Shown here: piece by piece, positions 861-14,242 of the stretch
Numbering within the stretch: the first letter of the stretch is position 1
Layout: each line of letters opens with the position of its first letter
Assembly: GCA_019749875.1 (NCBI GenBank)
Contig: JAIEPK010000091.1
Coordinates: 14,398 to 78,397, forward strand
Source: Candidatus Binatia bacterium
GTDB taxonomy: Bacteria; Desulfobacterota; Binatia; UBA12015
Length of the DNA stretch: 64,000 nucleotides
Direction: 5' to 3'
Translations under genes and position numbers: made by a program
Notes under the pieces: model-generated
What the model was told of the DNA's origin: nothing
What the model saw: only the letters and a program-made list of their open reading frames with translations
Databases searched by the model: none

Positions 861-2282
861 ATGGCGTCCGTACGAACGCGCTTCGCCCCGAGCCCGACCG
901 GCGCACTGCACGTCGGCGGCGTGCGCACCGCACTCTTCAGCTATCTCTACGCGCGCCATTTCGGCGGCCGATTCGTCCTGCGCATCGAAGATACCGACCG
1001 CCAGCGATCGACCCAAGCGTGGGTCGACGAGATCGTCGGTGCGCTGCGCTGGCTCGACCTGGAGTGGGACGAGGGTCCCTTCTTCCAGACCGAGCGCATG
1101 GATCTCTACCGCGAGACGATCGAGCGTCTGCTGTCGGACGGTCGTGCCTACCGGTGCACCTGCACGCCCGACGAGCTCGAGGCGAAGCGCAAGGTCGCCA
1201 TGCAGAGCGGCGGCAGCGCAGGCTACGATCGGCACTGCCGGCCCGGCTTCGGCCCCGGCCCCGACGCGGGCCGACCGGCCGCGATCCGCTTCGCGATGCC
1301 GACCGACGGCGAGGCGGTCATCGAGGACCTCGTCAAGGACAAAGTCGTCTTCCGCAACGCGGACGTCGACGACTTCGTGATCGCGCGCTCCGACGGCTGG
1401 CCGACGTACAATCTCGTGGTCACCGTCGACGATGCGGACATGGCGATCAGCCACGTGATCCGCGGCGACGACCTGCTGCCCAGCACTCCCAAGCAGATCG
1501 CGCTGTACCACGCGCTCGGTGCCCCGGTGCCGAGCTTCGCGCACCTGCCGCAGGTGCTCGGCGTGGATCGTGCGCGTCTCTCGAAGCGGCACGCCGCGAC
1601 CGCGGTCACGTCGTACCGCGAGCTCGGCTACTACCCCGACGCACTGGTGAACTTCCTGGCCCGTCTCGGCTGGTCGCACGGCGACCAGGAAGTGTTCTCT
1701 CGCAAGGAGTTGATCCACGCTTTCTCCTTGGAAAGTGTCGGCAAATCGGCGGGGGTCTTTAACCTCGAGAAGCTCGATTGGCTAAACTTCCAGTACCTGA
1801 AGGCACGATCACCCGAGCAGCTCGCAGGCGACTTGCGTCCCTTCATGGCGTCGCGCGGCATCGTGGTGCCGGGCGACGACGCTTGGCTCGCGAAGATGGC
1901 GGGCACGCTGCGCGAGCGTGCGAAGACGCTCGGCGAGCTGACCGACATGGCGAGCTTCTATCTCGCCGACGAGATCACCCTCGACGAGAAGGCGGTCGCG
2001 AAGTTCCTGAAGCCCGAGGCGGGACCTCTGCTGGCTGCGCTGGTCGACCGCCTGACGGCCCTGCCGGTCTGGGACCCGGCGGCGATCGAGGGCGTGTTCA
2101 CCGGTCTGATGACGGAGACGGGCGTGAAGCTCGGTGCCCTCGCGCAGCCGGTACGCGTGGCGGTGAGCGGCGGTACGGTGAGCCCGGGGATCTACGAGGT
2201 GCTCGACGTCCTCGGCCGCGAGCGCTCGCTGCGCCGGCTCCGGAATGCCATCGAGATCGCAAACGCGGCCGCCGGGCACTAG
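861..2282 (+). CDS. gltX: Glutamate--tRNA ligase (GluRS)
   Basis: HIGH-type motif HVGG near the N-terminus, KMSKS-like LSKRH, and class I GluRS sequence throughout. 473 aa. Confidence 0.95.
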   Translation: MASVRTRFAPSPTGALHVGGVRTALFSYLYARHFGGRFVLRIEDTDRQRSTQAWVDEIVGALRWLDLEWDEGPFFQTERMDLYRETIERLLSDGRAYRCTCTPDELEAKRKVAMQSGGSAGYDRHCRPGFGPGPDAGRPAAIRFAMPTDGEAVIEDLVKDKVVFRNADVDDFVIARSDGWPTYNLVVTVDDADMAISHVIRGDDLLPSTPKQIALYHALGAPVPSFAHLPQVLGVDRARLSKRHAATAVTSYRELGYYPDALVNFLARLGWSHGDQEVFSRKELIHAFSLESVGKSAGVFNLEKLDWLNFQYLKARSPEQLAGDLRPFMASRGIVVPGDDAWLAKMAGTLRERAKTLGELTDMASFYLADEITLDEKAVAKFLKPEAGPLLAALVDRLTALPVWDPAAIEGVFTGLMTETGVKLGALAQPVRVAVSGGTVSPGIYEVLDVLGRERSLRRLRNAIEIANAAAGH

Positions 2283-2320: not shown

Positions 2321-2393
2321 TGGGGAGTCGGCTAATTGGTAAGCCACCTGACTCTGGATCAGGCGATTGTAGGTTCGAGTCCTACCTCCCCAG
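2321..2393 (+). tRNA. tRNA-Gln (anticodon CTG)
   Basis: Cloverleaf read by eye. Acceptor TGGGGAG/CTCCCCA, anticodon stem CCTGA/TCAGG with loop CTCTGGA, T-arm GTAGG-TTCGAGT-CCTAC. No encoded CCA. Confidence 0.8.
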
Positions 2394-2400
2394 CTCATTC

Positions 2401-2472
2401 GGTCCCATCGTCTAGCGGTTAGGACACCGGCCTCTCACGTCGGGAACAGGGGTTCGATTCCCCTTGGGACCA
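2401..2472 (+). tRNA. tRNA-Glu (anticodon CTC)
   Basis: Acceptor GGTCCCA/TGGGACC, anticodon stem CCGGC/GTCGG with loop CTCTCAC, T-arm AGGGG-TTCGATT-CCCCT. Close to the canonical Glu tRNA. Lies directly downstream of gltX. Confidence 0.8.
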
Positions 2473-3049: not shown

Positions 3050-3439
3050 TTAGAGGCTCGCCTTGCGCGCCCGCGGGGTCGTCTTCGCGCGCGGAGCGCG
3101 CTTCTTCGCAGGCGCGGCAGGTGCCATGGGCTCCGCGCTCTTGACCCCCGTCGTCAGCATCGTGGCCAGATTGGTCTTGCCGTCCTTTGCGCGACGTGCG
3201 GCGGCCTTCTTCGCCGCCCGCTCGGCCGCCTCGAGAAACTCCGACGACCCACCGACGTCGTAGCGTCCGCGAACCTTCGGAATGTACCGCAGGCGCATCA
3301 CGATCTTGTGCTGCTCGTAGTGCTTCACGCAGCGCCAGCCCTTGTACGCTGGCTCGCTGCAGACGACACAGAGGCCGAGCGCGCGGTGCTTGCGCTGCCA
3401 CAACGTCTGACGGCTCACGCCGGTCTTCTTCTTCTCCAT
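3050..3439 (-). CDS. Hypothetical basic protein with a Lys/Ala/Arg-rich C-terminal tail
   Basis: 129-aa ORF. C-terminus AAKKAAARRAKDGK...KKRAPRAKTTPRARKAS resembles histone H1/HU-like tails. Terminator just downstream. Confidence 0.5.
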   Translation of the reverse strand: MEKKKTGVSRQTLWQRKHRALGLCVVCSEPAYKGWRCVKHYEQHKIVMRLRYIPKVRGRYDVGGSSEFLEAAERAAKKAAARRAKDGKTNLATMLTTGVKSAEPMAPAAPAKKRAPRAKTTPRARKASL

Positions 3440-3737
3440 TTCGATCTCACCCTGTCACCGCGACGCCGCCGCGGCTCAAAATCGGATTCACGAATTCTTC
3501 GATCTTGCCAGATCACCCGTATGGGGGGCAAGGCGCCGGGGCCGGCAATTTTACTCTTCCGGTCGTTTTTGCCGTACCAGCATCGCTCGGATTCTTGCAC
3601 GACGGAGGATCCCGTGCGGACGCCCCACCAGGCGCCGCAGCGCGTCGCGTTGACGCGACCCCGACATCGATCTAGGACCGCGGCTGAGCGTTCCGAAGAC
3701 GCGTCACCAACGAGAGACCAAGGGGCACGAACCATCG

Positions 3738-4154
3738 ATGAGCTGCATCTTCTGTCGCATCGTGTCGGGCGAGGTGCCGGCCGAGATCGTCGCGCGCGAG
3801 CCCGGCGCCATCGCGTTCCTCGACGTCTCCCCGCTCGCCGACGGGCACGTCCTGGTCGTGCCCGAGGCGCACGTCGCGCGCGTCGAAGACTTGGATGCCG
3901 GTGCTGCGGCTTCGCTGTTCCGCACCGTGACGCGACTCGCGGGGCCGATCCGGACCGCGGTCGACGCGGCCGGGACGACGATCGGCATCAACAACGGCGA
4001 GGCGACGGGCCAGACCGTACCGCACGTGCACGTGCACATCGTCCCGCGCTGGGAGGGCGACGGCGCCAGCAGCGTGCACGGGATCTTTCGAGCCGGCCCG
4101 CGACGTCCCGTCGCGGCCGTCGCAGCCGCCATCCGCGGCGCGATCGAGCGCTGA
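3738..4154 (+). CDS. HIT-family (histidine triad) hydrolase
   Basis: HVHVHIVPR histidine-triad motif and N-terminal MSCIFCRIVSGEVPAEIV typical of HinT/HIT proteins. Confidence 0.9.
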   Translation: MSCIFCRIVSGEVPAEIVAREPGAIAFLDVSPLADGHVLVVPEAHVARVEDLDAGAAASLFRTVTRLAGPIRTAVDAAGTTIGINNGEATGQTVPHVHVHIVPRWEGDGASSVHGIFRAGPRRPVAAVAAAIRGAIER

Positions 4155-4286
4155 TCGGGTGGCGCCCTCCTGCATCCGAGAGCACTTGCCCACCGTATCG
4201 AATGCACGCCGGGCGCCCGGCGTCCGCTAGTCACCGATTCGCACCGGCTCCGCGGCGTCGCGGACCGACGAACGATGGAGGAACGG

Positions 4287-4574
4287 ATGAATCGAACCAC
4301 CAGAGGGGCCGTCGTGGCGCTCGGCGTCGCAGCACTGTTCAGCGCAGGCACGGCCTTCGCCGAGTCCGCGAGCGACGGCCACGACATGCACGACGGCGGC
4401 GCCAAGAAGGACGCCAAGGTCGCGTGTACCGGCGTCAACGAGTGCAAGGGCAAGGGCGAGTGCGCCGGCGCAGGCAACTCGTGCGCCGGCAGCAACTCGT
4501 GCAAGGGCAAGGGCGTTCAGATGATGAGCGCCGCCGATTGCCAGAAGAAGGGCGGCAAGGTCGCGACCAACTGA
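4287..4574 (+). CDS. bufA: Bufferin-type RiPP precursor (DUF2282-like): signal peptide plus Cys-rich core with 6 Cys
   Basis: GGAGGA RBS then ATG at 4287. Signal MNRTTRGAVVALGVAALFSAGTAFA. Core VACTGVNECKGKGECAGAGNSCAGSNSCKGKG...ADC. Followed by DUF692 and DUF2063 genes. Confidence 0.7.
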   Translation: MNRTTRGAVVALGVAALFSAGTAFAESASDGHDMHDGGAKKDAKVACTGVNECKGKGECAGAGNSCAGSNSCKGKGVQMMSAADCQKKGGKVATN

Positions 4575-4582
4575 GCCGGTGC

Positions 4583-4609
4583 GGCGGGGGAGCGGTCCGC
4601 TCCCCCGCC
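4583..4609 (+). promoter_or_regulatory. Perfect 13-nt inverted repeat between precursor and modification-enzyme genes; possible attenuator or processing site
   Basis: GGCGGGGGAGCGG-t-CCGCTCCCCCGCC, 9 nt after the bufA stop. No U-tract follows. Confidence 0.5.
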
Positions 4610-4622
4610 GCCCGGGCGCGAG

Positions 4623-5480
4623 ATGACACGACATCCCCACCTCGGTTTCGGCATCGGCCTCCGCACCGGTCACTTCTCCGCCCTGCTCGAAGGCGGGACG
4701 CGTGCAGACTGGCTCGAGGCGATCTCCGAGAACTTCATGATCCCCGGCGGACGGCCGCTGCACGTCCTCGAGCGCGTCCGGCGCGACAAGATGCTGGTCC
4801 TGCACGGCGTCTCGCTGTCGATCGGCGGCAGCGATCCACTCGACCCGAGCTACCTGCGCGCGCTGCGCGCCCTCGCCGATCGCTTCGCTCCGGCATGGGT
4901 GTCGGACCATCTCTGCTGGACGCGCCACGACGCGCACCAGCTGCACGACCTGCTGCCGCTGCCGTGGACGGAGGAGGCTCTGGCGCACCTCGTACCGCGC
5001 ATCGCGCAGGTGCAGGACGTGCTGGCGCGTCGTCTGGTGCTCGAGAACGTTTCCTCGTACCTCGCGTTCGACGGCGACCTGACGGAATGGGAGTTCCTCG
5101 CCGAGCTCACGCGACGCGCCGACTGCGACGTGCTGCTCGACGTCAACAACGTCTACGTGAGCGCCCGAAACCACGGCTTCGACCCGCGACGCTACGTCGA
5201 TGCGATCCCGCCGAAGCGCGTGGCGCAGATCCATCTCGCGGGGCACAGCGATCACGGGACGCATCTGCTCGACACGCACGACGCGCCGGTCGCGGACGCG
5301 GTCTGGGAGCTCTACCGCTACACGATCGAGCGCCTCGGTCCGGTGTCGACGCTGGTCGAGTGGGACGGCGACGTGCCGGCCCTCGAGGTCGTCGAGGCAG
5401 AGGCGGCACGCGCACGCGACGTCGCCGCCGCTGCGGTGCAAGCGGCGCACACGCGACGTGACGGCGTTGCGGCTGCCTGA
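4623..5480 (+). CDS. bufB: DUF692 / MNIO (multinuclear non-heme iron oxidase, MbnB/BufB-like) RiPP-modifying enzyme
   Basis: 285 aa. ...LGFGIGLRTGHF...EAISENFM...HGVSLSIGG...ENVSSY...VLLDVNNVYVSARNHG...HLAGHS matches the UPF0276/DUF692 family. Confidence 0.85.
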   Translation: MTRHPHLGFGIGLRTGHFSALLEGGTRADWLEAISENFMIPGGRPLHVLERVRRDKMLVLHGVSLSIGGSDPLDPSYLRALRALADRFAPAWVSDHLCWTRHDAHQLHDLLPLPWTEEALAHLVPRIAQVQDVLARRLVLENVSSYLAFDGDLTEWEFLAELTRRADCDVLLDVNNVYVSARNHGFDPRRYVDAIPPKRVAQIHLAGHSDHGTHLLDTHDAPVADAVWELYRYTIERLGPVSTLVEWDGDVPALEVVEAEAARARDVAAAAVQAAHTRRDGVAAA

Positions 5481-6264
5481 GCTGCAGGAGCGCCTGCGCG
5501 CGCTGATCGCAGATCCGGAGACGCTCGCCGGACCGCTGTCCGCACTCGAGGCGAAGGTCGCAGCGCTGCCGATCCGCGGCGATGCGCGCCTGTCGTCCGC
5601 CGAGCGCGTGCGCATCTATGCCGCCATGTACGTCGCCCGCCTGCGTGACGCGCTCGCGGACGACTTTCCGGCGCTGCGTCACGCGCTCGGCGAGGAGGCG
5701 TTCGGCGCGCTGGCGCAGCGCTACGTCGCCACGCATCCGAGCGATCGCCCTTCCCTGCGCGACCTCGGTCGCCACCTGCCGGGCTTCCTGCGCCGCGGCG
5801 AGGTCGCTGCGGTGCCGTGGCACGCCGAGCTGGCACAGCTCGAGTGGGCCATGGTCGGCGCGTTCGACGCTCTCGACCAGCGCGTGCTCGCGCGAGAGCA
5901 ACTCGGCGTGCTCGCACCCGAAGCGTGGCCCGAGCTGCGGATCGTGCCGGTGGACTCGCTGCGCTTGCTCGCCTTGACCCATGCCGTCGACGCGGTGCGC
6001 GAGCGCCTCCTCGCCGGCCACGATGCCGGCGCGATCACCGCGACGAGAACCCTGTTGCGCGTCTGGCGGCAGGACCTCGTGGTCTACGTCCGCGCGATCC
6101 CGCAGCTCGAGATGGCGGCCCTGCGCTGGCTGCACCGTGGCTCGACCTTCGCCGATCTGTGCGGATGGCTCGATTCCGTGATCGACGCCGACCAGGACGC
6201 GACCCATGTCGCCGGGTCGCTGCTGGCGCGCTGGGTCGAGGACGGCCTTCTCGTGGCGGCCTGA
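5458..6264 (+). CDS. bufC: DUF2063-family protein (BufC/MbnC-like partner of MNIO enzymes)
   Basis: GTG at 5458 overlapping the bufB stop by 23 nt (coupling). VTALRLPELQERLRALIADPE...ERVRIYAAMYVARLRDAL matches the DUF2063 N-terminal region. Confidence 0.75.
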   Translation: MTALRLPELQERLRALIADPETLAGPLSALEAKVAALPIRGDARLSSAERVRIYAAMYVARLRDALADDFPALRHALGEEAFGALAQRYVATHPSDRPSLRDLGRHLPGFLRRGEVAAVPWHAELAQLEWAMVGAFDALDQRVLAREQLGVLAPEAWPELRIVPVDSLRLLALTHAVDAVRERLLAGHDAGAITATRTLLRVWRQDLVVYVRAIPQLEMAALRWLHRGSTFADLCGWLDSVIDADQDATHVAGSLLARWVEDGLLVAA

Positions 6265-6311
6265 CGCGCGCACTTGCCCACGCGCGCATGCACCTGCGAC
6301 ATAGGAGCGCG

Positions 6312-7325
6312 ATGCAGCTCGAAGCACGCGGCCTTCCGATCCACACGCGCTCCCTGTCGGTCACCCTGTCCGCCACGCAAGGGCGCGACGCCGCGTTCGC
6401 CGCCTACGTCCTCGACCTGCGCAAGCGCGGCTTCGTGCCCGTCGCGGGCGACCTGCAGGGCACCGGCATCATCCACCACATGCAGCTCGACGGCGCGATC
6501 GACCCGAGCGCGCGGCGTCTCACGCGGATCGCCGCGCGTATGCCCACGGTGGCCTTCGAGGCGAGCGTCGCGTCGGAGGGCGAGAGCTGCAGGGATCTCG
6601 CGGGCCGCGTCGATCATCTGGCCGGCACGGCGATCGACGGAACGTGGGCACGCGCGCTCGGAGCGGAGATCGGTGGCCCGCGCGGCTGCTCGCACGTGCT
6701 GACGCTCGCACAGCTGCTCGGCCCGACCGCCGCGTGGGCGCTCGACGAGGACGCGCGTCTGCTGCGAACACCCGCGCGCTCGCCGGGCGAGCGCATCTTC
6801 CGCCGCGACGTCACCATCGACGGCTACGAGTGCAGCGGCGACCTCTACTTGACGCTCCAGCTCAGCGACCTCCATCTCGCACCCACGCCGCCCGGCGCGG
6901 CCGCCGCCGATCGCTTCGCAGCCCAGCTGGAGCTGCGCGCGGCGACCCGGCTCACGATGGCCGACATGACGATCGCCGAGATCGGGCTCGCCGAGCGTCG
7001 CAGAACGGCCGCGGACTTCGAGACCGCGAGCTGGCACGAGCGCCCCGATCGCGCGACGCCGCTCCTCGGCGCATCGCTGCGCAGCGGCATCAGCGGGCGC
7101 CTGCTGCAGCAGTTTCAGGACGCCGGTACGGACCGCCCGCTGCTCGACGCTCTGCTCATGCTGGCCCCGGCGACCGTGCAGTGCATCGCCTCGTTCATCG
7201 ACACCTGGACCCAGGTGCCGTGGATGCGCCCGGGAGCCGCGAGCAATGGCGAGACCGGCGGCCATCCCGACTCCTGCTGGATGTGGCGCCGTGACGGCGC
7301 CCTCGGACGCAAGCGCTTCGGCTGA
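6312..7325 (+). CDS. Hypothetical 337-aa protein, probably co-transcribed with the buf genes
   Basis: AGGAG RBS then ATG at 6312, 47 nt after the bufC stop, same strand. No recognised domain. Several Cys. Not DoxX-like. Confidence 0.5.
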   Translation: MQLEARGLPIHTRSLSVTLSATQGRDAAFAAYVLDLRKRGFVPVAGDLQGTGIIHHMQLDGAIDPSARRLTRIAARMPTVAFEASVASEGESCRDLAGRVDHLAGTAIDGTWARALGAEIGGPRGCSHVLTLAQLLGPTAAWALDEDARLLRTPARSPGERIFRRDVTIDGYECSGDLYLTLQLSDLHLAPTPPGAAAADRFAAQLELRAATRLTMADMTIAEIGLAERRRTAADFETASWHERPDRATPLLGASLRSGISGRLLQQFQDAGTDRPLLDALLMLAPATVQCIASFIDTWTQVPWMRPGAASNGETGGHPDSCWMWRRDGALGRKRFG

Positions 7326-7361
7326 GGGCGCACGCCGCGACGGCGCGCGCCCCCGCCCCGT

Positions 7362-7844
7362 TCAGAGCCGCGCCAGCACCGACTCGGCGCTCGATGCGTT
7401 GAGCCCCGGTCCGGGCTCGACCATCAGGGCCTCGAGCTTGCCGTCGCGCACGATCATGGCGTAGCGCTGCGAGCGCTGGCCCATGCCGAAGCCGGTCGCG
7501 TCCATGCCCAGGCCGAGCGCGCGCGTCAGCTCGCCGTTCCCGTCCGCCAGCATGCGGATCTTGCCGCTCGCGTTGCTGCTCTTGCCCCACGCGTCCATGA
7601 CGAAGGCGTCGTTCACCGCGAGACACGCGATCTCGTCCGCGCCCTTCTTCTTGAGCGCGTCGTACTGCTCGACGAAGCCCGGCAGGTGCTTCATCGAGCA
7701 CGTCGGCGTGAACGCACCGGGCACCGCGAAGACGACCAGACGCTTGCCCGCCGACAGCTCGGCGAGCGATGTCGGGGTCGGCTTGCCGTCCACCATCTCG
7801 GTGACTTTCACGTCGGGAACCTTGTCGCCTTCCTTGATCGCCAT
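7362..7844 (-). CDS. Peroxiredoxin, Prx5/PrxD subfamily
   Basis: VFAVPGAFTPTCS peroxidatic-Cys motif. 160 aa, typical Prx5-like length. Confidence 0.9.
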   Translation of the reverse strand: MAIKEGDKVPDVKVTEMVDGKPTPTSLAELSAGKRLVVFAVPGAFTPTCSMKHLPGFVEQYDALKKKGADEIACLAVNDAFVMDAWGKSSNASGKIRMLADGNGELTRALGLGMDATGFGMGQRSQRYAMIVRDGKLEALMVEPGPGLNASSAESVLARL

Positions 7845-7949
7845 GTCGTCCTCCGCGCGCGGTTGGTTTGACGCGCGGGCCTACAGCTAGCCGAGGGCGC
7901 GGCGCCACTCAAGGATGGCGGCGCGCGCGAACGCAGCGCGGAGCGACGA

Positions 7950-8969
7950 TCACAACGCCAGCAGGAGCACCGCGGCGAGCGCTGCCGCGATCCCGACGCG
8001 AAGGAGAAAGCGCGGCTGGATCACCGCGTGGTCGGAGGCGATGCTGCGCACCGACTCCGGCGTGACCCCGCCGAGGCAGACGGCTTCGACGATCTCGAGG
8101 CAGTCGCCGGCCAGGAGCTCGCGGAAGACGTGGCCCAGCTCGGCACTGGCCGCCGACGGATCGCCCTTGTAGCTCACCTCGTCGCCGCCGTACCCGAAGC
8201 GCGCGTTGAGCAGCCAGCCGATGCCGCCACCGAGGGCGTGCGTCGCCTCGCGCACGTGCGCACCGTTGCCGCCGCGGCGCTCCCGCCACGTCGCGAGCCG
8301 CTCCCCGGCGTCCACCAGCGGCGCGAAGGGCGGCGGCTGACGCTGCCCCAGCCGCGCATACTCCGGCTCGACGAGCTGCGGGCGCTCGGCGAGCATGAAG
8401 CTCGTCTCCCACGTGCCGGCATGCTCGCCGCTGACCACCGCCACCCGCTCGTGCGGGTTCAGCGCACGGCCGAGCAGCTCCTCCACGCGTGCGAGGCGTC
8501 CGCCCGTGACGATGCGGTGCAGCACCGCGATCGACGGCGAGAACATGCGCATCCCGTAGCGCCGGCTGAGCTTGCGGCACGCGGCCTCGATCGCCGCCGC
8601 ATGGCGCGGTCCGCCGTGACCGTTGGTCACCACCACGTTCTCGAACCCGGCGCGGGCGAGCGACCTGCCGTGCGCGAGCAGCGCGCCATAGAGGATCCGC
8701 GGTGCCACCTCGAAGGTTCCCGGCAGCGGCAGCTCGTCGCAGCCGAGCGCCAGCAGGGGCAGCTGCACGACGGTCCAGTCCGGGTGTCGCTCGGCGAAGC
8801 GTCGTCCGGCCTCCTCGGCCATCCAGCGCGCCATCGCCTGATCCATCCCGAGCGGCAGGTGCGGCCCGTGCACCTCGAGGGCGCTGACCGGCAGGAACGC
8901 GACCGCGCGCGTCCGGATCATGCGCAGCAGTGCAGCGTAGCTCAGCTCGTCGGCGCGAACGATCGGCAT
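7950..8969 (-). CDS. Creatininase-family amidohydrolase
   Basis: HGPHLPLGMD, VVVTNGHGG and SGEHAGTWETS motifs. Start chosen at MPIVRADEL (8969). Table ORF extends to 8999. Confidence 0.75.
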   Translation of the reverse strand: MPIVRADELSYAALLRMIRTRAVAFLPVSALEVHGPHLPLGMDQAMARWMAEEAGRRFAERHPDWTVVQLPLLALGCDELPLPGTFEVAPRILYGALLAHGRSLARAGFENVVVTNGHGGPRHAAAIEAACRKLSRRYGMRMFSPSIAVLHRIVTGGRLARVEELLGRALNPHERVAVVSGEHAGTWETSFMLAERPQLVEPEYARLGQRQPPPFAPLVDAGERLATWRERRGGNGAHVREATHALGGGIGWLLNARFGYGGDEVSYKGDPSAASAELGHVFRELLAGDCLEIVEAVCLGGVTPESVRSIASDHAVIQPRFLLRVGIAAALAAVLLLAL

Positions 8970-10912: not shown

Positions 10913-13900
10913 TCAGTGCGCCGCTCCGGCCGCCTTCGCGCGATCGGCCTCGAGCTGCTTCACCTCCTCGGGCGGCAGCTGCTGACGGAGCGCCGCGTCG
11001 GCGGCGTCGGCCGGGATGCTGAAGCGATAGAGCGGGAAGTAGTCGCCGGTCGAGGTGTTCTTGTCGCGCTGGACCTTCTCGGCGAGCTCCTTCCCGGTCA
11101 CGACGGTACCGTCGGCGAGAACGTTGTCGCTGCCGTGCGCGCTCGCTTCGCGCGGCAACGTCAGCGCCGCGAGCGTGCTCGACAGCCAGCCGCGCAACGA
11201 CGCGAGCCACGTCTGATCCGCCCGCTCGAGGCGCGCGAATGCCGGGAGCTCGTCGTGCAGCAGCGTCGCCGTCGCCATGACCGGCAGACCGGGCGAATCG
11301 AAGCCGTCGCCGGCGAGGTCGACGAAGATGGGATTGGTGAAGCCGAGCGGGATCATGCCCGGCACGATCTTGTCGATGAGCGCGTCGGGCGTCGGCAGCG
11401 GCGACAGCTTCGCGCCCGCCTCGACGATGAAGTAGGTGTCGACCGCGAGGTTGACCGGGATCTCTGCGTCGAAGCGCGTGATCTTGCCGAGCGCCTGGCT
11501 GAACGGGCTCGCGGGCGGCGCGCCCACCTTCGGCGACGTGGTCGCGTCGAAGGTCAGCGTGGTGAAGCCGTTCGCGATCACGCGCACCTGGTCGACCGGA
11601 ATCCAGTTCGCGGCCTGCACCTCGATGCGCAGCCGCACCGTGCCGCTCGCCGGCACCAGTGTGCCGCCGAGCCCCGCCGAGGCGCCGATCGTGTCGAGCA
11701 CGGAGAAGCGGATGAACGGGCCGGTGGTCGCCATCATGTTGGCGGCCTTCACGTTCGCGTTGAAGGTCGTCGGGTCGAGCGTCGCGGGATCGTCGCCTGC
11801 GCCGCCGACGTACGTCCGCGCGTAGCCCGCGCTCTCGAGCGTGACCCGGTGCGAGTCCGAGGTGCCCGTGCCGCCGATGAACGGCACCGTCGGCGGATCG
11901 ATCTGGTTCAGCAGCGACAGCCAGTCGCGCCGCACCGCGATGTACGCCGGGATCTCGGTGCCGTTGAGGATCTCCATGACGTCGAAGTCGATGTTGCGCA
12001 GCCCGTCCGGGTTCGACACGCCCGACGTGCCCGGTCCGGTGACGTCGTCGTCGAGCAGCATGTCGTTGGGCGACGCCGCGAGCGGCAGGCTCGGGTCGTA
12101 ACCGAAGTTGTTGAAGAAGCCGATCGAGGTGATGCCGGAGACGCCGGCACGCACGTGGTTGTACTGGAGGACCTGCGCTCCCTGATCGCGCAGGCGCTTG
12201 AAGATCCAGTTCGGGGCGACGAACTCGTCCTCGATCGCGCCGTCGCGGCGTGCGTTCGCCTGCACGGTGAGCGGCCACGCGTTGATGTGTCCGGTGCTGT
12301 CCGGGAACGCGGGCGGGTTCGGCACCGAGCCCGTGACCTCGTTCCCGACCATGGACGTGATGCGGCTGCCGAGGTTCAGGTTGGCGATGATCGGCGCGTA
12401 ATCGACCTGGTAGTCGTGGTCGGTGCTGACCATCACCTCGACTCCCTCCGCCGCGAAGCCCGCGACGCGGTCCTGCAGCGGTGCGGTCGAGTCGAGGCTG
12501 CGCGCGGAGTGGATGTGGAAGTCGCCGGAGACGAAGCCGGCGGTGTCGACGGAGCGTCGCAAGCGGAAGTTGATCTTGCGCGTGCGCTGCGCGCGGACGT
12601 TGACGATCTTGCGGCGCAGCGAGTACTCGGGTCCGCGCGAGGCGTAGATTTCGTACTTGCCGGGACGCAGCTGCACGGTGCCGCTGCCGCTCGCGAGGAA
12701 GACCCAGTTCGCCTGCGCGGGTCCGCCGCCGAAGGTCTCCATGCGCAGGTCGACGTCCGGCCCGACGGTCGGGTCGCCGATCGCGATCACGTCGCTCTTG
12801 AAGCGCGGATCGACCGTGGGAGCCACGCCCTTGATGGTGATCTTCGCCGGCATGGCCGGATCGGGGCCGGCGACGGTCTCGAGGACCTTGAGATCGAGCG
12901 TGGCGAGCGCGCTCAGCTCCGGAACGGTCACTGCCGTGTTCGCCGCCGCATTGACCACGACGCCGGTCACGGTCACCGGGTCGCGCTCCGGCGAGCGAAC
13001 CTCGAGGCTGTACGTTCCGACCGGCAGCACGATTCCCGAGAACGCCCCGGTCGCGCTGGTGCGGAACTGCGTCACCGGCGTTCCGGGGCCGAAGACCGGC
13101 AGCGCGGCACCGCCGGTGCGTGTCGCGATGACGCTCGCGGCGACGTCGGTGGCGTCGGCGGCGTCGACCTCGCCCGAGATCGTCCCGGTCGCGAAACCGC
13201 GTCGTGCGGCGATCTCGGTGATCATCGGGTTCGCGACCGCCGCGACGTCGTTCTTGCTGCCGACGTAGATCCGCCGCTTGTACGTGAGGACGCCGCCGGG
13301 CTGCAGCGTCCCGAGCGGCGAGTTGCCGAATGCCGTCAGCAGATTGCTGCTCACCCCGAAGAGCGAATTGACGGCGGCAACCACCGGCGGATTCGGGCCC
13401 GCGCCGTCCTGGTCGATCGACGCCTCGTCACCGAGGATGCCGTAGGCGTTCTCGCCCGCGACCAGGTTGTTCGCCGGGTCGATGATCCCGTCCCCGGGGC
13501 CGGCGAGACCGGGCGCCGCAGCGAACGGCGGCAGCTCCAGTGCCGCCGCGATGTTCGAGAAGTCGAGCACCGCGTGCTTGAAGCCCTTGCCCGCGACCGG
13601 CGAGAACGGCACCTGCGCGCGTTGCGTCCACAGGCTCACATCGAGGAACCCGCCCAGCCCGGACGCCGGGTTGGTCGGATGGTTGTTGGTCACCGTCGTG
13701 GTGACGGTCAAGTACGGATCGGCGTTCGCCGCGGTGTACTCGGTCACGACGACCAGGTCGCTCGGCGGGACCGGCGTGGCGCCCTGATCGAAGCCGAGCA
13801 GATTGCCCGTGCAGGTGATCGTCGCCGAGGTCGGCGTCGACGACGCGCTCACGCCCGAGTAGACGATGAAGTTGCTCGTGCTCAGGCCCCCGACGGTGAA

Positions 13901-14242
13901 GATCTGCGTCAGGTGGTCGTTGTTCTGACCGTTGTTGCCGAGGTCGAGGACCGAGCAGCCCGAGAGCGCGAACTCGCTGACCTTGGGCGGTGCGGCCGGT
14001 CCGAGCAGCGGCACGAGATCGTCCTGCGGCCCGACGTCGTCGACGATCGCCTGGACCACGCCGTTCGAGACGTACCAGTCGTCGATGCCGCCATCCGCGT
14101 CGGTGCCCGCGAACAGGACCGAGGCCGCGTTCCCGGCGGTCACCCGCGTCGCGATCGGACTCGCCGTCGCGGGCGCGCTCGCAACGAGCAGCAACGAAGC
14201 CGACGCGACGATCGCGTGGCACGAAGAGCGCAGGTTTCGCAC
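10913..14242 (-). CDS. Large secreted protein (1109 aa) with a PHP/CehA-McbA-like metal-dependent hydrolase domain
   Basis: Signal peptide MRNLRSSCHAIVASASLLLVASAPATA. Internal GDFHIHSARSLDSTAP...VMVSTDHDY PHP-like motifs. Long beta-rich Gly/Thr/Val regions. Confidence 0.65.
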   Translation of the reverse strand: MRNLRSSCHAIVASASLLLVASAPATASPIATRVTAGNAASVLFAGTDADGGIDDWYVSNGVVQAIVDDVGPQDDLVPLLGPAAPPKVSEFALSGCSVLDLGNNGQNNDHLTQIFTVGGLSTSNFIVYSGVSASSTPTSATITCTGNLLGFDQGATPVPPSDLVVVTEYTAANADPYLTVTTTVTNNHPTNPASGLGGFLDVSLWTQRAQVPFSPVAGKGFKHAVLDFSNIAAALELPPFAAAPGLAGPGDGIIDPANNLVAGENAYGILGDEASIDQDGAGPNPPVVAAVNSLFGVSSNLLTAFGNSPLGTLQPGGVLTYKRRIYVGSKNDVAAVANPMITEIAARRGFATGTISGEVDAADATDVAASVIATRTGGAALPVFGPGTPVTQFRTSATGAFSGIVLPVGTYSLEVRSPERDPVTVTGVVVNAAANTAVTVPELSALATLDLKVLETVAGPDPAMPAKITIKGVAPTVDPRFKSDVIAIGDPTVGPDVDLRMETFGGGPAQANWVFLASGSGTVQLRPGKYEIYASRGPEYSLRRKIVNVRAQRTRKINFRLRRSVDTAGFVSGDFHIHSARSLDSTAPLQDRVAGFAAEGVEVMVSTDHDYQVDYAPIIANLNLGSRITSMVGNEVTGSVPNPPAFPDSTGHINAWPLTVQANARRDGAIEDEFVAPNWIFKRLRDQGAQVLQYNHVRAGVSGITSIGFFNNFGYDPSLPLAASPNDMLLDDDVTGPGTSGVSNPDGLRNIDFDVMEILNGTEIPAYIAVRRDWLSLLNQIDPPTVPFIGGTGTSDSHRVTLESAGYARTYVGGAGDDPATLDPTTFNANVKAANMMATTGPFIRFSVLDTIGASAGLGGTLVPASGTVRLRIEVQAANWIPVDQVRVIANGFTTLTFDATTSPKVGAPPASPFSQALGKITRFDAEIPVNLAVDTYFIVEAGAKLSPLPTPDALIDKIVPGMIPLGFTNPIFVDLAGDGFDSPGLPVMATATLLHDELPAFARLERADQTWLASLRGWLSSTLAALTLPREASAHGSDNVLADGTVVTGKELAEKVQRDKNTSTGDYFPLYRFSIPADAADAALRQQLPPEEVKQLEADRAKAAGAAH

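Follow-up and report, generated by a model that had tools for sequence, protein, structure and literature searches.

A predicted Buf2-type bufferin operon of Candidatus Binatia, with a recurrent stem-loop after the precursor gene and clade-restricted synteny with a DUF2889 gene

The founding Buf2-type bufferin operon, buf2ABC of Caulobacter vibrioides (CCNA_02999-03001), contains genes for a precursor, an MNIO enzyme and a DUF2063 partner, in that order, and has no DoxX gene; the central cysteines of its product bear -4 Da modifications (PMC11626156). Buf1 operons (buf1ABCD) likewise use an MNIO and a DUF2063 protein for maturation and yield a product that binds copper in the periplasm, but their precursor has four cysteines and belongs to PF10048 (DUF2282), and they often include DoxX and sigma/anti-sigma genes.

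We analyzed a 64-kb stretch of DNA (the window) from a Candidatus Binatia genome. On the basis of gene order and profile matches, the locus described here is a canonical three-gene Buf2-type bufferin operon, bufA2-bufB-bufC. These genes and a fourth gene that follows them are all on the same strand (Table 1), at coordinates that agree with an earlier note on this DNA. That note had recognized a bufferin-type MNIO RiPP cluster, and the searches bore this out: the precursor and the maturase scored above the curated cut-offs of the NCBIfam equivalog models NF050166 (Cu_RiPP_BufA2; 67.6 bits, cut-off 60, E=8e-19) and NF050167 (MNIO_BufB; 365.9 bits, cut-off 310), and the partner protein matched DUF2063 (PF09836; 74.5 bits, cut-off 27.2). 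The note had also placed the precursor in DUF2282. We rejected this identity, because no Pfam family was reported for the precursor even at E<=10, PF10048 included, and NF050166 passed instead; of the three families named in the note, Pfam thus returned DUF692 (PF05114, 353.7 bits for BufB) and DUF2063 only.

Table 1. Features of the bufferin locus and its surroundings (positions in the window).
Feature	Position	Strand	Evidence or remark
HIT-family gene	3738..4154	+	PF01230, 85 bits; context, outside the system
12-mer GCACTTGCCCAC with TTGCCC -35-like box, ~95 nt upstream of bufA2 ATG	4182..4193	+	candidate promoter element (inferred)
bufA2, Buf2-type bufferin precursor, 95 aa	4287..4574	+	NF050166; putative Sec signal peptide, 6-Cys core
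GC-rich stem-loop, perfect 15-bp arms 4581-4595 / 4597-4611	4575..4617	+	inverted repeat and fold
bufB, MNIO (DUF692) bufferin maturase	4623..5480	+	PF05114, NF050167
bufC, DUF2063 partner protein	5458..6264	+	PF09836; GTG start inferred
CTTGCC box, 34-39 nt upstream of DUF2889 ATG	6273..6278	+	inside second 12-mer copy (6270-6281)
Fourth gene, cytoplasmic DUF2889 protein, 337 aa	6312..7325	+	PF11136
Prx5-type peroxiredoxin	7362..7844	-	PF08534 Redoxin, 125.5 bits

The locus resembles buf2ABC of Caulobacter in the order of precursor, MNIO and DUF2063 partner, in the lack of DoxX, in the six-Cys core of the precursor, and in passing the BufA2 and BufB models. A signal peptide as in the Caulobacter precursor is apparent by eye, as a Sec-type N-terminus (MNRTTRGAVVALGVAALFSAGTAFA, followed by E) with a basic n-region, a hydrophobic stretch (AVVALGVAALFSAG) and a cleavage site between AFA and E. 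There are exactly six cysteines in the precursor, a number shared by 49 of the 51 distinct precursors of related loci, and they occupy invariant columns in an alignment of 13 precursor sequences. The earlier description of the precursor stood with respect to its cysteines and, as read by eye, its N-terminus, and failed with respect to its family, which is BufA2 by NF050166. A Shine-Dalgarno sequence (GGAGGA) lies 5-6 nt 5' of the bufA2 start codon, and there is an alternative ATG at 4275. Unlike the Caulobacter operon, the locus is found in a Binatia MAG with 70% GC, yielded no SigF/NrsF-type regulator in a search of the window, and is followed by the DUF2889 gene and, convergent with it, a Prx5 gene; in addition, the N-terminus of the core is His-rich (DGHDMHD), and its modification and copper binding are predictions.

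The solved structures nearest to BufB were 3bww (1e-45), the DUF692 chain 8hci (9e-22) and MbnB. A Buf2 cluster is expected to have, adjacent to BufB, a DUF2063 partner with an RRE-like C-terminal domain; the PF09836 match identifies BufC as the adjacent DUF2063 protein. BufC also resembles the HvfC partner model NF050145 over its full length, yet scored below threshold (56.6 bits versus 142). The bufB and bufC reading frames overlap by ~23 nt, with the same overlap in the gene calls of relatives, which suggests translational coupling. By analogy to the characterized Caulobacter system, BufA2 would be synthesized with a Sec signal peptide, cytoplasmic BufB together with BufC would convert the four central cysteines to thiooxazoles, and the first and last cysteines would form a disulfide. 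The mature product would then be exported to the periplasm and sequester copper. All of this chemistry is assigned by homology.

The earlier note had presented the fourth gene as an anomaly, in effect a cluster of the Buf1/DUF2282 type whose DoxX is replaced by a novel protein of no recognizable domain. The order of precursor, MNIO, DUF2063 and a further co-directional gene is superficially like that of buf1ABCD. However, neither PF10048 (no Pfam match at E<=10) nor DoxX was found, the BufA2 model scored above its cut-off, and DoxX-terminated operons are a Buf1 trait. Since the founding buf2ABC operon has no DoxX either (PMC11626156), its absence here is normal. The supposedly domain-less protein matched Pfam PF11136 (DUF2889; 44.5 bits, cut-off 25, residues 11-140), a family with no general MNIO association (see below), and an identical protein in NCBI is already titled 'DUF2889 domain-containing protein [Candidatus Binatia bacterium]'. 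These profile searches refute the Buf1-like interpretation, which we find scarcely credible, and the missing DoxX with a novel fourth gene turns out to be no anomaly.

Compared with the Pfam DUF2889 family, the N-terminal half of the 337-aa protein passes the gathering score, and this long form of ~335 aa continues into another DUF2889-like half, which is divergent; its C-terminal PDSC[WY]MWR motif is invariant. Pfam gave no match to the C-terminal half alone, and NCBIfam none to the protein. An AF2 model (pLDDT 83, pTM 0.85) has two similar halves, and alignment of the N-terminal against the C-terminal half with hhalign gave E=0.02; as modeled, the protein looks like a tandem DUF2889-like duplication. 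A sequence profile search of the PDB with the family alignment found no match, and the MHC-like matches obtained with Foldseek against the PDB were discarded as spurious (E>=2e-3, TM ~0.15). Six residues (H11, H55, C93, C126, H128 and C322) were invariant in 86 of 86 family sequences. A metal or redox role would be in keeping with this Cys3His3 set, and the ~335-aa DUF2889 family is probably an uncharacterized metalloprotein. In the literature, DUF2889 turned up in two mentions only, both incidental.

We compared the neighborhoods of the DUF2889 family with those of close BufB relatives. The DUF2889 gene follows bufABC in 4 of its family's 80 species-level genome loci (L006, L007, L008 and L010). 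Close BufB relatives provided 44 informative loci, those with at least 1.2 kb of sequence 3' of bufC; 10 of them have a DUF2889 gene and 34 do not. Other DUF2889 loci have heterogeneous neighbors, including ClpB, Zn-ADH, enoyl-CoA hydratase, P450 and acyl-CoA dehydrogenase. The earlier note had asked whether the fourth gene co-occurs with MNIO clusters across genomes, and had named a lack of phylogenetic relation to MNIO neighborhoods as evidence to the contrary. The latter is largely what we found: in ~70 of the 86 members of the family, bufABC is missing from the surrounding 6-8 kb, and all buf-adjacent copies fall in one clade of a neighbor-joining tree. A conserved accessory gene would be expected to accompany MNIO clusters in unrelated lineages, which we did not observe, and DUF2889 did not appear in the text or the searched supplements of an MNIO landscape survey. 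The link between DUF2889 and bufABC is clade-restricted synteny, with no general MNIO association.

The flanking genes have a similar distribution. A HIT gene lies upstream of bufA2 in loci of the inner clade (L001, L007, L008, L010 and L086-L096) and is absent in L004 and in sister Buf2 loci. It can be used as a synteny control, since it adjoins bufABC in a restricted clade much as the DUF2889 gene does. The Prx5 gene, whose translation contains a PGAFTPTC motif, is found 3' of DUF2889 throughout the clade wherever the contig is long enough, and its adjacency is likewise clade-limited. The earlier note had called this gene adjacent and divergent; it is adjacent but convergent, lying on the minus strand tail-to-tail with the fourth gene. 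Sister Buf2 clusters have ECF sigma/anti-sigma or NrsF genes 3' of bufC instead of DUF2889, and none of their ECF sigma, RskA, NrsF or ferritin genes occurs within the 64-kb window. The stress-related neighbors, Prx5 here and ferritin-like proteins in the sister clusters, fit a common theme.

A perfect 12-mer repeat marks the regions upstream of bufA2 and of the DUF2889 gene. The sequence GCACTTGCCCAC occurs only twice in 64 kb, at 4182 and 6270. As a common operator it was rejected, since a 79%-identical relative does not conserve the copy that precedes bufA2; for the same reason we retained it only as a -35-like box. TTGC-type boxes were seen by eye at a similar distance upstream of bufA2 in relatives. 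Upstream of the DUF2889 gene, an alignment of 10 clade members showed the CTTGCC box to be invariant and the remaining spacer to have diverged, which makes it a candidate -35 element and hints that this gene has its own promoter. Consensus scans of the cluster for sigma-70 promoters and terminators found neither, and a stem past the DUF2889 stop codon (7320-7357) was no better than shuffled sequences (z = -1.1).

The fourth gene is best read as a syntenic neighbor that may have a promoter of its own, rather than as a DoxX replacement. It is probably a neighbor and no new pathway component, because it adjoins such operons in one small lineage only. The adjacency would have arisen once in one Binatia sub-lineage and been inherited along with HIT and Prx5 on either side. 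We also considered that the DUF2889 protein could be a clade-specific fourth bufferin component, co-transcribed with bufABC, metal- or redox-active through its invariant three Cys and three His, and functionally tied to Prx5; it might, for example, provide BufB with metal or reducing equivalents or control these, or sense copper or oxidative stress. The gene is co-directional with bufC across a terminator-free gap of 47 nt, and this adjacency persists over ~40% protein divergence with spacers of 9-190 nt, just 9-18 nt in L096 and L089. The bufABC-DUF2889-Prx5 block is kept from 100% to ~59% DUF2889 identity, even without HIT and creatininase, and the wider region (GltX, a response regulator and DUF1302) is syntenic down to 60% identity. 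The shared 12-mer, and the stress genes (ECF sigma/anti-sigma, ferritin-like) that sister clusters carry in the equivalent position, also favor a fourth component. However, that the buf-adjacent copies form a single clade implies one juxtaposition event, and the association is missing from the other ~70 family members and from 34 of the 44 BufB loci. In addition, locus L009 retains DUF2889-Prx5 without bufABC, there are genomes with several DUF2889 paralogs in unrelated contexts (L006 and L073; L011, L042 and L061), the HIT gene shows a similar clade-limited adjacency, and the 79%-identical relative has not conserved the 12-mer ahead of bufA2. We consider a fourth component unlikely. A broader proposal, in which a tandem-DUF2889 protein was recruited as a cytoplasmic Buf2/copper-oxidative-stress accessory with Prx5 and the stem after bufA2 is a general, undescribed Buf2 ratio device, is doubtful.

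The stem-loop between bufA2 and bufB was real and stronger than the earlier note had claimed: its perfect arms are 15 bp and begin 6 nt past the bufA2 stop codon, rather than 13 bp at 9 nt, and with an imperfect extension the arms reach 21 nt with 90% complementarity. The predicted minimum free energy was -44.1 kcal/mol (z = -4.54), and none of 200 shuffled versions, which averaged -29 kcal/mol, was equally stable. The stems are too divergent for sequence alignment (RNAalifold on a MAFFT alignment gave only four pairs and no covariation), so we used folds of each locus and a control window inside bufB, counting uninterrupted stems that were 8 bp or longer and lay no more than 60 nt from the bufA2 stop codon. 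A comparable GC-rich stem was present in ~86% of 59 distinct loci, with a median folding energy of -35.3 kcal/mol after bufA2 versus -21.8 kcal/mol in the control window. An Rfam search over 3400-8200 had no match, and two bufferin papers make no mention of a post-bufA2 stem. Comparable stems lie 3' of nisA and pqqA. Like these and the repeat of lasso peptide clusters, the Buf2 stem is stable, follows the precursor gene directly and precedes the enzyme genes, an arrangement with a presumed high precursor-to-enzyme ratio; unlike them, the stems of high-GC Buf2 hosts have no U-tract (57 of 59 loci). In lasso peptide clusters, a terminator-like inverted repeat separates the A gene from the biosynthetic genes (PMC5974421).

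One could regard the stem as an efficient factor-independent or Rho-assisted terminator of a monocistronic bufA2 transcript, with bufBC expressed separately, or as a GC-rich palindrome of no role. A few low-GC relatives (L141, L146, L151, L135 and L157) do have a stem followed by a T run, that is, a canonical terminator, and strong folding is expected of high-GC intergenic DNA, as the average of the shuffled sequences illustrates. The window, however, has the GC-rich stem-loop without a U-tract (tail CCGGGCGCGAG; the terminator scan was empty at the hairpin), and T-rich tails were present in 2 of the 59 loci, so the stem is not a canonical intrinsic terminator. There is also no space for a bufB promoter, since in the window just 5-11 nt separate the end of the stem from the bufB ATG, and the entire bufA2-bufB spacer is 44-60 nt in many loci. 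Also against these readings are the z-score, the enrichment over coding sequence, and a position that is conserved (median start 1 nt past the stop codon) although stem sequences vary by locus. Both explanations are quite improbable. Most likely, the stem defines or protects the bufA2 3' end. Through partial termination or a block to 3' exonucleases it would leave more bufA2 mRNA than bufBC mRNA, and in the window it may also mask a weak bufB ribosome-binding region. The stoichiometry control suggested in the earlier note is consistent with the recurrence across Buf2 loci, which fits a role in setting the precursor-to-enzyme ratio without proving it.

Taken together, we hold with considerable confidence that the locus is a canonical Buf2 operon with a recurrent hairpin after bufA2 and that the DUF2889 gene is a syntenic neighbor. 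The locus adds Candidatus Binatia to the hosts of Buf2 bufferins; its main value is otherwise correct annotation. The recurrent stem is a candidate element for the precursor-to-enzyme ratio and is relevant to heterologous expression. The ~335-aa DUF2889 family is a second modest lead, since one of its clades keeps a stable linkage to a copper-stress operon and a peroxiredoxin gene.

The cluster consists of four co-directional open reading frames on the plus strand between positions 4287 and 7325 (see table). The ATG of the first gene, bufA2, at 4287 is preceded by a GGAGGA Shine-Dalgarno sequence. Its product has an N-terminus that we judged by eye to be a Sec-type signal (MNRTTRGAVVALGVAALFSAGTAFA|E) and exactly six cysteines in the core, in agreement with the earlier note, which had also correctly recognized the MNIO enzyme that follows the precursor and its DUF2063 partner. 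The assignment of the precursor to DUF2282 did not hold. A Pfam search with the precursor reported no family, even at E≤10, and the protein passes the NCBIfam BufA2 equivalog ('BufA2 family periplasmic bufferin-type metallophore') with 67.6 bits against a cut-off of 60. Six cysteines were found in 49 of the 51 distinct precursors from related loci and form invariant columns in an alignment of 13 precursors; the remaining two BufA2-like precursors have 10. BufB scores above the cut-off (310) of the NCBIfam equivalog 'MNIO family bufferin maturase', and bufB and bufC overlap by approximately 23 nt. The families to which BufA2, BufB and BufC belong, the order of the genes and their overlaps are shown directly here, as are the hairpin with its recurrence and the distribution of the DUF2889 gene (both below). 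GC content is uniform across the region (approximately 70%) and therefore gives no pointer to a recent insertion. Because a protein identical to the fourth-gene product is recorded by NCBI as Candidatus Binatia, we assign the host to a Candidatus Binatia MAG.

Coordinates of the genes and sequence elements discussed here, in the window unless a related locus is named
Feature	Coordinates	Strand	Details
bufA2 precursor	4287..4574	+	95 aa; alternative ATG 4275; NF050166 match
bufB	4623..5480	+	PF05114 (MNIO family), 354 bits; NF050167, 366 bits
bufC	5458..6264	+	DUF2063/PF09836, 74.5 bits
Fourth gene	6312..7325	+	337 aa; PF11136 DUF2889, residues 11-140, 44.5 bits (cut-off 25)
Prx5-type redoxin	7844..7362	-	
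Stem-loop			inverted repeat; perfect 15-bp arms begin 6 nt after bufA2 stop
12-mer, first copy	4182-4193		upstream of bufA2
12-mer, second copy	6270-6281		upstream of DUF2889 gene
Glutamyl-tRNA synthetase gene	861..2282		
tRNA-Gln(CTG)	2321-2394		
tRNA-Glu(CTC)	2401-2472		
129-aa ORF	3050-3439	-	upstream of HIT gene; no Pfam match
1109-aa ORF	10913-14242	-	
Sister-cluster gene (sigma, anti-sigma or ferritin-like), L105	2548-3090	+	
Sister-cluster gene, same kinds, L116	3037-4137	+	
Sister-cluster gene, same kinds, L116	4141-4779	+	
Sister-cluster gene, same kinds, L110	8025-8717	-	

The earlier note held that bufferin operons usually end with a DoxX-like gene. This fits Buf1, in which the DoxX-terminated operon is found, and not Buf2: the founding buf2ABC operon of Caulobacter has no DoxX gene (PMC11626156), and a later survey found additional conserved genes only 'in extremely low proportions' (PMC12452194). 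The absence of DoxX from the window locus, as from the Caulobacter operon, is therefore expected. By analogy with the Caulobacter system (PMC11626156), BufB and BufC would convert the four central cysteines to thiooxazoles, the first and last cysteines would form a disulfide, and the product would be exported by Sec and bind copper in the periplasm.

A perfect inverted repeat does follow the precursor gene, as previously noted, but its arms are longer and start closer to the stop codon than the 13 bp and 9 nt first given. The window stem has a predicted folding energy of -44.1 kcal/mol; dinucleotide shuffles average -29.4 ± 3.2 (z = -4.5), and none of 200 folded as stably. We compared 59 distinct bufA2-bufB regions. 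In 86% of them, an uninterrupted stem of 8 bp or more lies no further than 60 nt from the stop, starting at a median of 1 nt past it, and the median dG is -35.3 kcal/mol, compared to -21.8 in a window of equal size inside bufB. A stem at this position thus recurs in Buf2 operons, and the bufferin literature that we compared does not mention it. Stem sequences vary between loci, and no formal covariation could be demonstrated in a sequence-based alignment. We rejected a canonical intrinsic terminator in the high-GC hosts, as a T-rich tail follows the stem in only two of the 59 regions; the lower-GC relatives (loci L141, L146, L151, L135 and L157) resemble canonical terminators. The stem would create or protect a 3' end of bufA2, a role matched by the terminator-like inverted repeat that lasso-peptide clusters carry between the A gene and the biosynthetic genes (PMC5974421). 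In the window, the stem adjoins the weak bufB ribosome-binding region and ends 5-11 nt before the ATG, and this spacing is not conserved among loci.

The fourth protein, described in the earlier note as lacking a recognizable domain, matches DUF2889 above the cut-off and is already named so in its NCBI record. The implied tie of this gene to MNIO clusters was checked in both directions and proved to be limited to one clade. A profile of the approximately 335-aa family recovered 80 species-level genome loci, and their neighborhoods were searched by tblastn with BufA2, BufB and BufC from the window. Only four of the 80 (L006, L007, L008 and L010; 59-79% identity) have bufABC directly upstream, as does the metagenomic locus L004. 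No bufABC was detected by tblastn within 6-8 kb of the other members, which are 34-60% identical and come from Binatia, Myxococcota, Gammaproteobacteria, Limnocylindria and others. Their neighbors are mixed and include ClpB (14 loci), Zn-dependent dehydrogenase, 3-hydroxyisobutyrate dehydrogenase, enoyl-CoA hydratase, P450, acyl-CoA dehydrogenase and CMD; across the family, acyl-CoA or oxidoreductase genes or ClpB often adjoin. Several genomes contain two or three DUF2889 paralogues.

In the reverse direction, we collected 80 metagenomic loci with BufB relatives (59-82% identity), of which 44 were informative, with at least 1.2 kb downstream of bufC. The DUF2889 gene was present in 10 of these, every time with a convergent Prx5 gene, and missing from 34. 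In the window, too, the Prx5 gene and the fourth gene are convergent; the earlier note had called them divergent. In the loci that lack DUF2889, sister Buf2 clusters (BufB approximately 64-68% identical), its place after bufC is occupied by ECF sigma, RskA-type anti-sigma and ferritin-like genes, or an NrsF anti-sigma gene lies nearby; no homologues of their ECF sigma, NrsF or RskA genes were found within the 64-kb window. DUF2889 does not appear in the text of the MNIO landscape paper or in those of its supplements that were searched.

In a neighbor-joining tree of 86 family members, every buf-adjacent DUF2889 copy falls in one clade. Locus L009 lies in the same clade and has kept DUF2889-Prx5, but the 2 kb upstream of the pair contain no bufC. 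This contig (CAZGUU010000093.1) is labelled 'uncultured Enterobacteriaceae bacterium' and nests among the Binatia copies; it is probably mis-binned or mis-labelled, or has lost the operon locally. The upstream HIT gene shows a clade-limited adjacency similar to that of DUF2889, and synteny across the wider region (GltX, response regulator, DUF1302) persists at 60% identity. Elsewhere in the region, the two tRNA genes lie directly downstream of the glutamyl-tRNA synthetase gene, a small unannotated gene resembling the 129-aa ORF occupies the same place in loci L001 and L002, and the 1109-aa ORF is kept as a 1108-aa gene in the 79% relative, with no Pfam hit on record there. Taken together, the one-clade tree, the co-occurrence counts and the shared synteny indicate a single juxtaposition followed by vertical inheritance, which argues only weakly that DUF2889 and bufABC are functionally linked.

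The spacer between bufC and the DUF2889 gene is 47 nt long and terminator-free, so read-through from bufC is plausible. Within it, a CTTGCC box 34-39 nt before the DUF2889 ATG is invariant in ten clade members, while the remaining spacer diverges (alignment A2), and an A-rich hexamer lies approximately 17 nt past the box, 5-9 nt before the ATG. From sequence, we infer that the two elements are a candidate promoter, which would produce a near-leaderless DUF2889 mRNA. The 64 kb contain exactly two copies of the 12-mer GCACTTGCCCAC, and only the second copy (CTTGCC core) is conserved in relatives. Because conservation of the bufA2 copy does not extend to the 79% relative, we did not accept the 12-mer as an operator common to bufA2 and DUF2889.

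From 18 homologues, AlphaFold2 produced a fairly confident model of the DUF2889 protein (pLDDT 83, pTM 0.85). The model contains two alike halves (β-sheet 11-79 with helices 97-151, and β-sheet 161-232 with helices 245-293), and hhalign gave a weak in-register match between them (E=0.02, residues 92-138 versus 240-286). Given the similar halves and this match, the protein is probably a tandem DUF2889-like duplication. No solved structure matches the model. H11, H55, C93, C126, H128 and C322 do not vary among the 86 family members, C291 occurs in only 49 of them, and the family motifs are GESCRD, GCSHxLTL and PDSC[WY]MWR. Clustering at 50% identity (E≤1e-30) gives 142 clusters, a modest family size. 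It is a probable uncharacterized metalloprotein family; that its member here was recruited as a metal or redox accessory seems unlikely to us. The locus is an ordinary Buf2 bufferin operon, found in a new host lineage and set in a DUF2889/Prx5 neighborhood that is specific to one clade.
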